This document shows, piece after piece, positions 4,743-6,038 of a DNA stretch of 60,829 bases. The stretch is taken from assembly GCA_001783065.1 (NCBI GenBank), contig MFQN01000011.1, positions 1 through 60,829 on the forward strand, written 5' to 3'. The DNA is from Candidatus Magasanikbacteria bacterium RIFCSPLOWO2_12_FULL_43_12 (lineage in GTDB: Bacteria > Patescibacteriota > Patescibacteriia > Magasanikbacterales > UBA922). The notes under the pieces were generated by a model, which was given only the letters and a program-made list of their open reading frames with translations, had not been told where the DNA came from and did no database searches. The stretch's first letter is position 1. The number at the start of each line of letters is the position of its first letter. Made by a program: the position numbers and the translations under genes.

Positions 4743-6038
4743 AATGCTATGTCTTTCTTCACCATCACCCACCAAGACAAACACTCCCTCGCGCGAACCG
4801 GAGTAATCCACACCGCTCACGGCGACATTGAAACGCCGGTTTTTATGCCGGTCGGCACGCAGGCGACAGTTAAAAGTTTGGACAGCGCCGATCTGGAAAA
4901 TCTTGACGCGCAAATTATTTTGGCAAACACCTATCATCTGCATCTCCGCCCCGGAGAAGATATAATCAACGACTGCGGCGGCCTTCATAAATTCATGAAC
5001 TGGAATCGCCCGATTTTAACCGACAGCGGCGGATTCCAGGTTTTTAGTCTGTCAAAAAATATCTGTAAATCTGGATTATCCGGAAATCCGGATTATTATA
5101 AGGATCAAGGAAAATTGGCATTAATTGATGACGAGGGAGTTACTTTCACTTCTCACTTGGATGGAAGCACGCATCGCTTCACTCCCGAATCCGCGATTGA
5201 AATTCAACACAAACTCGGCGCGGATATTATCATGGCTTTTGACGAATGCACTCCGGATGACGCTGATGAAAAATACACCCGCGAGGCAATGGAGCGCACG
5301 CACAAATGGGCCGAACGCTGTCTCACATATCATAAAAACATTAAAACATTAAAACACCTGCCCGACATGCCTGACGGCAAGTCATGGCAGGCGGGTAAAA
5401 ACAAACAATTTTTGTTTGGTATAATTCAGGGGGCAAATCACAAAGAACTTCGCGAAGAATCCGCCCGCGCCATTTCGGCAATGGACTTTGACGGCATCGC
5501 CATCGGCGGCGAATCAGTCGGTTTTAATATGGACGCGACAAAAAAAATATTGGACTGGGTCAATCCAATAATTCCCAAAAACAAGCCGCACTACACCATG
5601 GGGGTCGGTTTTTCCCCGTCTGATTTATTTGAAGTCGTTGAACGCGGCGTTGATATGTTTGACTGCGTCGCGCCCACTCGCATGGCGCGGAATGGAGCGC
5701 TCTTCTGTCATTGCGAGGAGCGAGGGACGAGCGACGAAGCAATCCAGTTTGGATCGCCACGCCTCTTCGAGGCTCGCGATAACGGCAACAAACATCGTAT
5801 CAACATAAACAACGCAAAATACCGCGATGACAAATCTCCAATCGATCCACTCTGCACCTGCTCAACTTGTAAAAATTACACCCGCGCCTATCTCCACCAC
5901 CTCTTCAAAGCCGAAGAGCTCCTCGCCTACCGCCTCGCCACGATTCACAACCTGCATTTCTTTTTAAACCTAATGCGAGAAATTAGACAAGCAATCAAAG
6001 ATAATAAATTTTTAGAATTAAAAAAAGAGTGGATTTAA
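4728..6038 (+). CDS. tgt: Queuine tRNA-ribosyltransferase; carries an in-frame MITE-derived insertion
   Basis: 436 aa. [34 protein letters not shown], zinc site [17 protein letters not shown]. An extra segment of about 25 aa, [27 protein letters not shown], is encoded by a family-A repeat copy at 5703..5790. Confidence 0.9.
5703..5790. mobile_element. Family-A element, diverged copy inserted in frame within tgt
   Basis: tgtcattgcgaggagcgagggacgagcgacgaagcaatcca...aggctcgcgataacgg. Aligns with the copies at 30355 and 9245. Confidence 0.65.

Follow-up and report, generated by a model that had tools for sequence, protein, structure and literature searches.

Palindromic repeats lodged within bacterial genes are reportedly represented by the Rickettsia palindromic elements (RPEs, types RPE-1 to RPE-8) of Ogata et al. 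2000. RPE-1 is a longer type, of about 100-150 nt. A second group, the REPINs (repetitive extragenic palindromic (REP) doublets forming hairpins) and BIMEs (bacterial interspersed mosaic elements), is said to go together with REP-associated tyrosine transposases (RAYTs), as told by Bertels and Rainey 2011, Nunvar 2010 and Ton-Hoang 2012. The locus analysed here lies in a bacterium of the candidate phyla radiation (CPR), Candidatus Magasanikbacteria bacterium RIFCSPLOWO2_12_FULL_43_12, within a stretch of 60,829 nucleotides (contig MFQN01000011.1; hereafter the window). In this stretch short hairpin-forming modules, termed family A, recur between genes, and one pair of them stands in frame within tgt, the gene for tRNA-guanine transglycosylase (Tgt).

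A third described system is formed by the CGTC-tagged REPs, families CGTC-1 to CGTC-4 (Di Nocera, De Gregorio and Rocco 2013, PMC3733652). Their tag, CGTC and often TGTC or CCTC, stands unpaired at one end. The stem that follows is a continuous one of 8-9 bp with a loop of 4-5 nt, its first and second positions being complementary A-T pairs, and the tails 'fit the consensus CCA'. Head-to-head dimers, often heterodimers, predominate, with spacers of 20-100 bp. These REPs have no dedicated transposase, are mostly intergenic, between unidirectional or convergent genes, and were published mainly from Alphaproteobacteria, with hosts in 5 phyla. Dimers lying within genes 'encode 20 to 30 amino acids', and the hosts are frequently genes of DNA repair and RNA modification; the listed peptides include CHSRESGNP, DSRFRGND and VIAGLDPAIH, and a CGTC-4 element lies in queA of R. 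conorii (RC0283), whose RPE-4 and RPE-6 are filed in the same superfamily (PMC3733652). In-frame MITEs (transposable elements of miniature size with inverted repeats) of bacteria are exemplified by the QMITEs of Coxiella burnetii, reportedly small non-autonomous repeats able to extend or fuse open reading frames (ORFs) (PMC5896051; review PMC10969869).

A palindromic dimer in frame within tgt

The gene and the element that it holds comprise the following features.

4728-6038, plus strand: tgt, 436 aa, an intact ORF taken from the ORF list, with a phmmer match to the Z. mobilis TGT at E=2e-98.
5705-5785, plus strand: in-frame element of 81 nt or 27 codons (residues 327-353), a head-to-head dimer of TGTC-tagged REP-like modules.
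5705-5746, plus strand: left module, CTGTC-ATTGC-GA-[GGAGCGAGGGACGAGCGAC]-GAA-GCAAT-CCA, 39/42 identical to 30355-30396.
5747-5785, minus strand: right module, CCGTT-ATCGC-GA-GCCTC-GAA-GAGGC-GTG-GCGAT-CC in minus-strand reading, diverged with its hairpin architecture kept.

The segment 5705-5785 is probably a head-to-head heterodimer of REP-like hairpins, of the superfamily tagged TGTC or CGTC, that is carried in frame by tgt as a tolerated passenger. As the preliminary description of this DNA had stated, the ORF passes through it without a stop. The last of its 27 residues (353) lies 22 residues ahead of C376, the first Cys of the CxCxxC zinc site. That description had made its proposal of an insertion depend on a significant nucleotide match to the intergenic copies; the match is significant, since 39 of the left 42 nt are shared with the 30355 copy, in its left module (blastn-short of tgt against the window, E=7e-11; z=11.5 against shuffles).

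The right module is more diverged. Its end is CTCGCGATAACGG, not the canonical CTCCTCGCAATGACAG; the half nevertheless has the architecture of a module, aligning with the GAGCC-type right module of the copy at 20352-20450 with 29 of 40 positions identical (z=6.5 against shuffles). Its third basal pair is altered on both sides (T:A to C:G), and the module folds at -14.8 kcal/mol with the 5-bp basal stem formed. The most compact dimer of the window is the one in tgt, whose spacer measures about 3 nt.

Copies of the element in the window

Dinucleotide-preserving shuffles of the 60.8 kb lead one to expect 0.36 matches to the terminal motif CTGTCATTGCGAGGAG with at most three mismatches; the window itself has 11, and all of them fall at the seven places originally named. 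Five complete two-ended elements and a single module (the copy named at 3833) accompany the tgt copy, giving 13 family-A modules in about 60 kb. The dimers are listed without a strand.

3838-3877 (about), minus strand: single family-A module between convergent stop codons (ORFs ending at 3833 and 3882), complementary to 50729-50766 at 38 of 38 positions.
9245-9366: intergenic family-A dimer between queA and yceG, with a third, miniature module in its spacer.
20352-20450: intergenic family-A dimer whose left tag is CGTC.
30355-30473: intergenic family-A dimer that folds as RNA at -64.9 kcal/mol (z=-6.4); it is to its left module that the tgt left module is most closely related.
33210-33347: intergenic family-A dimer, a mosaic with the left module of the 9245 copy (97% identity) and the spacer and right module of the 30355 copy (99%).
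50730-50828: intergenic family-A dimer.

All six copies outside tgt lie outside ORFs that have a Pfam domain or a gene call in the near-identical public contig MFQJ01000003.1 (GCA_001783015.1; 99.7-99.98% identity), in agreement with the intergenic placement first given to them. The gene map was taken from that contig and, for the remaining ORFs, from Pfam, which covered 30 window ORFs at 25.8-59.1 kb in addition to precomputed matches for 2.3-25.4 kb. Left and right modules have been exchanged between copies, and the right module GAGCCTTCGCAGGC is common to those at 3838, 9366, 20450 and 50730. A terminator role for the intergenic copies was judged without scanning and rejected, the only long homopolymer run on the transcribed (minus) strand, in the spacers of 30355 and 33210, reading A, not U.

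The miniature module in the spacer of the 9245 copy (9300-9335, minus orientation) reads CCGTT-ATCGC-GTTCTAAT-GCGAT, and CGCGATAACGG of the tgt right module is found again in this spacer. Because the two share the unusual CCGTT tag and the ATCGC/GCGAT stem, they suggest a small subfamily rather than random decay. Separately, an isolated 12-nt match to a module terminus, CCTCGCAATGAC, stands at 6726-6737 in a hypothetical gene of 134 aa (ORF 6618-7022, plus strand), where it encodes PRND. An estimated 0.03 such matches would be expected by chance for an 11-mer, and the match may be the relic of a module.

Architecture and distribution of the modules

The modules of the window follow the plan (C/T)GTC-ATTGC-GA-[variable hairpin]-GAA-GCAAT-CCA and are paired with their tags outward. 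A (C/T)GTC tag stands directly ahead of the stem in 12 of the 13 (TGTC, or GTC at 9366, in 11; CGTC at 20352), the tgt right module having CGTT instead. The same 12 modules share the basal stem ATTGC/GCAAT, which is ATCGC/GCGAT in the tgt right module. The tail GCAAT-CCA is present in 11 of the 12 canonical modules, with CTA at 20352, and reads GCGAT-CCA in the tgt right module; its third base varies across phyla (CCA, CTC, CCC). Beyond the stem, of 5 bp, come a GA/GAA internal loop and then a variable distal hairpin of 9-39 nt. Unlike modules are joined head to head in every two-ended copy, the five between genes and the one in tgt.

Each module has a stop codon in one of its three frames per strand (TGA in CAATGACAG), so that two-thirds of the frames are open. 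Among the five intergenic dimers, 11 of 30 frames are free of stops and three of five lengths are divisible by three, and the chance that a dimer inserted at random could be read through would be roughly 1/10 to 1/3. The selection for stop-free copies that had been proposed is not needed, because the modules are mostly open and purifying selection on tgt is enough.

The module frame was sought in other genomes as TGTCATTGCGAG-N8-38-GAAGCAATC, with one genome per species, and was found in at least 120 loci, where an estimated 8 or so would be expected by chance. The 80 named loci include Chloroflexota, Bacteroidota, Cyanobacteria, Alpha-, Beta-, Gamma- and Deltaproteobacteria, Planctomycetota, Omnitrophota, Nitrospirae, Gemmatimonadetes, Atribacterota, Bacillota, Spirochaetes, Helicobacter, a Rickettsiales endosymbiont and several Patescibacteria. 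The interiors vary freely in sequence and length and yet behave as hairpins: a G-C pair closes 125 of the 129 distinct ones, which come from over 100 genomes of many phyla, and a perfect closing stem of at least 3 bp is present in 38% against 4% of shuffles; the 5-bp ATTGC/GCAAT stem is kept in 122 of the 129 minimum-energy folds (mean z -2.2 against interior shuffles). Head-to-head arrangement predominates there too (60 of the 109 cores at these 120 loci, with 7 tail-to-tail and 7 in tandem), and Chloroflexus carries tandem arrays of modules. Genes of other phyla that contain family-A modules encode an ATP-dependent DNA ligase, KsgA, a PfkB kinase, a MiaB-like radical-SAM protein and a PD-(D/E)XK nuclease.

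The same frame occurs in at least 120 viral contigs of IMG/VR, with up to six copies per 10 kb (L176, L143, L135), against about one by chance on a rough guess of the size of the collection. Of these contigs (L130-L249), many belong to one group of related phages with the same large, structural-looking ORFs, and some copies lie within phage ORFs. Rfam gave nothing at gathering score across the whole window and, at permissive E-values round two copies, noise only (miRNA models and an SAH riboswitch at E=1.5). Literature searches returned only unrelated primer sequences for the literal motif and nothing relevant for palindromic or REP elements in CPR.

Turnover of inserts at a Tgt loop

The comparison of Tgt proteins covered 120 homologs for loop lengths and an 88-sequence alignment for invariant columns. 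The closest insert-free homolog outside the species cluster (P0010, locus L001) is 74% identical and has the gene order of the window: UvrD, a C39-like peptidase, tgt, Vut_1 and queA. Its site reads CTA TTC ACT CAC AAA GGA CGC ATA (LFTHKGRI; onward LFTHKGRINI), where the window has CTC TTC [TGT CAT TGC ... GAT AAC GGC AAC] AAA CAT CGT ATC; the junctions TTC|TGTCAT and AACGG|CAACAAA thus face an empty TTC ACT CAC AAA. The stretch from LF to INI has a modal length of 15 residues (36 of 120 homologs) as against 36 in the window. A phmmer alignment to the solved Z. mobilis enzyme is broken at the same place, with query residues 17-326 matching chain residues 20-294 and 358-432 matching 300-374, so that 31 residues stand in place of five (295-299).

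The Tgt homologs are 378-468 aa long, and their alignment has three hotspots of length variation, after GGFQVFSL, after WAxRC..H and after ARNGxLF, which are enlarged in 67, 22 and 51 of the 120, respectively. At the third, where the window element lies, relatives that are 72-78% identical have different inserts or none. One type is a single module of another TGTC family, TGTCATCCCGACCGAGCGGAGCGAGTGGAGGGATCC, encoding CHPDRAERVEGS; others are of the CHPDTIRAISGAEAH type or of the CCCTCCCCCTCGTAGGGGGAGG type, which encodes SLPLVGGGQEGV. Against these relatives, the window segment is best read as a lineage-specific insertion and not an ancestral loop, as the preliminary description had held. The nearest relatives lack the family-A segment. 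Its refuting condition, the same segment in orthologs of unrelated lineages, calls for caution: in three proteins of about 63-65% identity (P0049, P0055 and P0071) a full family-A dimer, 96 nt long, begins at that very codon.

This coincidence admits two histories. In one, a single TGTC-type element entered before the Tgt clades of Magasanikbacteria split, perhaps as an ancestral feature of the loop, and was later overwritten by recombination with other copies in the genome or deleted. Such a history would explain why the complete family-A dimer of locus L003, in a Tgt about 63% identical, begins at exactly the codon used in the window (TT[TC] TGT CAT TGC GAG GAG) and why families C and D, found here in close relatives, likewise begin TGTCAT; the module exchange visible between intergenic copies is in keeping with it. 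We consider it unlikely all the same. The neighbour-joining order separates the P0049/P0055/P0071 clade from the window by many insert-free proteins, and the nearest neighbour of the window, P0010, is empty. The two elements differ in length (81 and 96 nt) and in interior sequence, in P0002, P0012 and P0018 an intact V-H is followed by an unrelated family, and several losses and replacements would be needed. In the other history the codon was entered more than once. Because the element of the P0049 clade differs in length and interior and the clade is flanked by insert-free proteins, the same-codon elements point to a recurrent landing site rather than a shared ancestral segment.

Within the species, all members of the 90% protein cluster that span the region have the insert (five members; four NCBI metagenome-assembled genomes, more than 12 contigs), and no presence/absence polymorphism was seen in these five members or in the near-identical public contig. 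The insert is thus fixed in the sampled cluster, and its right module is diverged, which does not bear out the view of the element as active or recently active.

Other inserts were observed in the same proteins. The tgt gene of GCA_964641245.1 (L003, 8875-10233) has a module of the GTCATCCTGAG family in loop 1 (VILSETKDPS) and the complete family-A dimer in loop 3; across its 20-kb locus, family A is confined to tgt, whereas nine copies belong to the GTCATCCYGA family, including one in Tgt loop 1. In the window tgt, loop 1 (about 5064-5096) holds a repeat-like insert, AAATCTGGATTATCCGGAAATCCGGAT, whose 11-residue peptide recurs in loop 1 of P0002 and P0003 and in loop 2 of P0024, and loop 2 (about 5358-5399) holds a 42-nt palindromic insert of 14 residues that is absent from L001 and L005. 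No further copies of these two inserts were found elsewhere in the window.

The Tgt protein around the insert

Pfam places PF01702 in all Tgt homologs, and the catalytic residues D99, D172 and D309 and the zinc residues C376, C378, C381 and H407 are invariant in the 88-sequence alignment. An AlphaFold2 model of the window Tgt built from the same 88 homologs has a mean predicted local distance difference test score (pLDDT) of 84 and a predicted template modelling score (pTM) of 0.86, and Foldseek superposes it on the Z. mobilis TGT (1ozm/1pud) with a template modelling (TM) score of 0.93, target-normalised, and a root-mean-square deviation of 2.0 Å. Values of pLDDT below 50 are confined to residues 102-120, 219-224 and 332-351, which are the three hypervariable loops, and to the three-residue stretches 71-73 and 126-128. 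Strands 324-326 and 357-359 flank the insert, in keeping with an excursion from a two-strand tip. On this model, Tgt most likely gains a loop of 26-27 residues that is disordered and solvent-exposed.

The best-supported course of events is that the dimer landed in a two-strand excursion, at its tip, with the catalytic barrel on one side and the zinc subdomain on the other (residues 295-299 of the Z. mobilis enzyme). The ribosome would read through it, since the element measures 81 nt and neither module has a stop codon in this frame, and Tgt would acquire the loop with the remaining enzyme unchanged. The insert would be translated, functionally neutral and tolerated as a passenger. In Magasanikbacteria several repeat families have entered this loop and the two other Tgt loops time and again, and the loops therefore serve as permissive landing sites filtered by selection.

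It is highly improbable that the segment has been co-opted, for instance as a peptide that modulates the binding of tRNA or a partner or as an mRNA hairpin that modulates translation or stability of the tgt message. Its fixation in all sampled members of the species cluster, the retention of the right-module hairpin through a two-sided stem change and the enlargement of this loop in 51 of 120 homologs could be taken in favour, as could the fold of the sense strand of the 81-nt unit into one long hairpin of -32.4 kcal/mol. For the intergenic dimers, however, z scores lie between -3.5 and -6.6, whereas this fold reaches only -1.9; the pLDDT below 50 suggests that the loop lacks a defined structure; and one member of the 90% cluster has T334A within the insert. 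Because the inserts of close relatives at this site are unrelated (families A, C, D or E, or none), the site reflects turnover and not conservation.

That tgt is inactivated or decaying, its open frame being a coincidence, is the least credible alternative. Two of three frames per strand being open, an open frame is in itself not improbable, and the representative of the 90% cluster (P0001, from a further assembly of this species) has C376S, at the first zinc-site Cys, as its single difference from the window Tgt. Against decay, the 436-codon ORF is intact and keeps all catalytic and zinc residues in the window copy, four of five cluster members match the window outside the insert (C376S in one, H391R in one), synteny with queA and the Vut_1 (YhhQ-type) transporter gene is conserved, and the relatives with other inserts at tgt are all full-length.

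Several points weigh against the tolerated-passenger account as a whole. The same-codon element of L003 could reflect an old insertion followed by loss and replacement instead of independent events, and, as no polymorphic empty site was found within the species, the insertion may be old. The C376S of P0001 could mean relaxed constraint in one population, or an assembly or sequencing error. The surface position of the insert is deduced from low pLDDT and the flanking strands, and translation of the loop and activity of the enzyme are predicted from the gene sequence. The interrupted stem is unlike that of the four published CGTC families, and membership of their superfamily is drawn from the tag, the first stem positions, the tail and the dimer form.

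Mobility of the modules

The label 'MITE-like with terminal inverted repeats' given at first does not describe the element well, its ends being two autonomous hairpin modules placed head to head. A classical MITE, that is, a deletion derivative of an insertion sequence (IS) with terminal inverted repeats recognised by a DDE transposase and with a target-site duplication, is very unlikely. The ends are indeed inverted copies of a motif of about 16 nt, and the elements are short (81-138 nt) and multicopy. Yet no target-site duplication was seen, on reading the flanks by eye, at the junctions of the six two-ended copies (the five intergenic ones and that in tgt). Each end is a self-contained hairpin that also stands alone (3838-3877) and in the tandem arrays of Chloroflexus, and left and right modules are shuffled among copies. 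No transposase or IS was found in the 60.8-kb window by Pfam and the gene map of the public contig. ORFs of the 8-kb loci round 120 genome copies, and those within 1 kb of modules in 120 viral contigs, were clustered all against all (240 loci, about 0.84 Mb of genome and 1 Mb of viral sequence): no transposase-like neighbour recurred, the recurrent ORFs being housekeeping paralogs and shared phage structural genes only. This agrees with the 2013 conclusion for CGTC REPs.

The dimer would instead have arrived by the mechanism that spreads CGTC-type REPs, possibly by transposition of a single-strand hairpin in trans, on the model of the RAYT/IS200-type enzymes that act on GTAG REPs. A simple target rule, in which an ancestral TTC GTC (Phe-Val) offered CGTC and the element entered 3' of it, predicts F-V-I-A-R; it fails, as the window and L003 read F-C-H-C-E. 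An intein, an intron or translational bypass at tgt was also rejected: the segment is only 27 aa, where inteins have about 130 aa or more, there is no credible Rfam match, and bypass is not required because the frame is open.

As a more speculative proposal, which we hold rather doubtful, the module, whose exact 21-nt frame is shared by at least 120 species-level genomes of many phyla and at least 120 viral contigs and whose distal stem covaries freely, may be among the most widespread mobile hairpins of bacteria and phages, moved by an enzyme encoded elsewhere, with the Tgt loop as a preferred insertion site. The last part may be considered because elements starting with TGTCAT entered the identical codon in separate clades. 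If this were so, the Tgt loop could reveal the target rule, and the movement of CGTC-type REPs would become directly testable.

Other repeats and genes in the window

A second palindrome family, TCTGTCCTGAGCGACCCGTCCCGAGATGGACCGAGGGAAGCCGAAGGATC, lies in frame in yceG/mltG (10065-10110 in ORF 9502-10590, minus strand) and in ruvA (27015-27060 in ORF 26537-27166, minus strand). The two copies have opposite orientations, are 93% complementary and encode DPSASLGPSRDGSLRTD in YceG and PAMSDPSRDGPREAEG in RuvA, where the RuvA_N domain match is stretched by 17 residues. The gyrB gene (52718-56176, plus strand; 1152 aa) has an intein at residues 500-919 (Pfam Intein_splicing), which separates the GyrB domain from Toprim.

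Intergenic arrays of tandem oligomers are present at 1365-1456, 9118-9173, 9456-9509, 39358-39442 and 52661-52714, and further arrays at 55925-55970, 56627-56659, 57254-57289, 57557-57602 and 59986-60170. Their units are 9-mers of the CTTACGAGG and CTTGTAAGC types and 7-mers of the GAAGTCT type, and they frequently stand as inverted pairs on either side of genes. Oligomer repeats of this sort are translated in the Tgt loops of relatives, as four units of ACTTGCAC in L007 and as AAAACATT repeats encoding KNIKTLK. Possible defence or addiction modules are a toxin-antitoxin pair of the YafQ/RelB type (25823-26396) and a helix-turn-helix plus SocA/Panacea-domain protein (45427-46212).

Comparison with known systems

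The event is of an already known kind, RPEs having been recognised since 2000 and intragenic CGTC and GTAG REPs since 2013. What is new is the CPR host, the very broad distribution of a family with an interrupted stem and the use of three Tgt loops as recurrent landing sites, same-codon insertions included. Intragenic insertions of the REP/RPE type are thereby extended from Proteobacteria and Rickettsia to the CPR, where selfish repeats in housekeeping genes are less expected because the genomes are small and streamlined. Part of the variation in CPR protein length, as in the Tgt homologs of 378-468 aa, would consist of repeat elements translated in permissive loops; such segments would inflate the number of 'novel insertions' in CPR, break profile alignments and spawn spurious small ORFs (LLAMT, PRND and SSQ* peptides). 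With the recurrent same-codon insertions, a natural data set is at hand from which to work out how CGTC-type REPs choose their targets.

With the CGTC-tagged REPs the window family shares the tag, the A-T start of the stem, the CCA tail, the predominance of head-to-head dimers with outward tags, the mostly intergenic position between unidirectional or convergent genes and the intragenic dimers of 20-30 residues. The ATTGC...GCAAT-CCA frame also appears to be that of CGTC-3, as obtained by back-translating VIAGLDPAIH to GTCATTGCCGGG...CCCGGCAATCCA. The differences lie in the spacers, of 20-100 bp as against about 3 nt in the tgt dimer; in the hosts, mainly alphaproteobacterial as against CPR/Patescibacteria, many phyla and viral contigs; and in the stem, continuous over 8-9 bp as against 5 bp with a GA/GAA loop and a free distal hairpin. 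Because of this stem the element cannot be filed in CGTC-1 to CGTC-4, and the family is best regarded as an interrupted-stem variant in the CGTC/TGTC-tagged REP superfamily.

Bacterial MITEs have terminal inverted repeats, target-site duplications and descent from an IS, none of which was found for the window element. REPINs and BIMEs resemble the window dimers more closely, being inverted REP doublets that fold as one long hairpin, include heterodimers and move, it is presumed, as dimers. They differ in having a GTAG tag and a REP-flanked RAYT gene, the tag here being TGTC or CGTC; no Pfam match to Y1_Tnp was found among the window proteins.

The analogy with RPEs drawn in the preliminary description holds well, the tag, AT-start, tail and dimer form being those of the superfamily that includes RPE-4 and RPE-6. 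RPEs are in-frame palindromic repeats in housekeeping genes, tolerated as extra peptide, as the tgt insert appears to be: the site is empty in P0010/L001 and most homologs, the frame is open, and the insert occupies a low-pLDDT position in a protein whose core superposes with a TM score of 0.93. The RPE-4 and RPE-6 peptides (CHSRESGNP, DSRFRGND) are similar in style to the CHCEE...ARDN of the window insert, although the RPE stem, of ATTCCCGC type to judge from the peptides, differs from that of the window family. In Rickettsia a gene of the queuosine pathway, queA, also carries an element; in the window this gene is tgt, which sits with a yhhQ-type transporter gene (Vut_1) and queA. Rickettsia is a reduced, obligately intracellular bacterium, whereas the host described here is an environmental CPR bacterium in whose sister lineages the same gene loop holds different repeat families.

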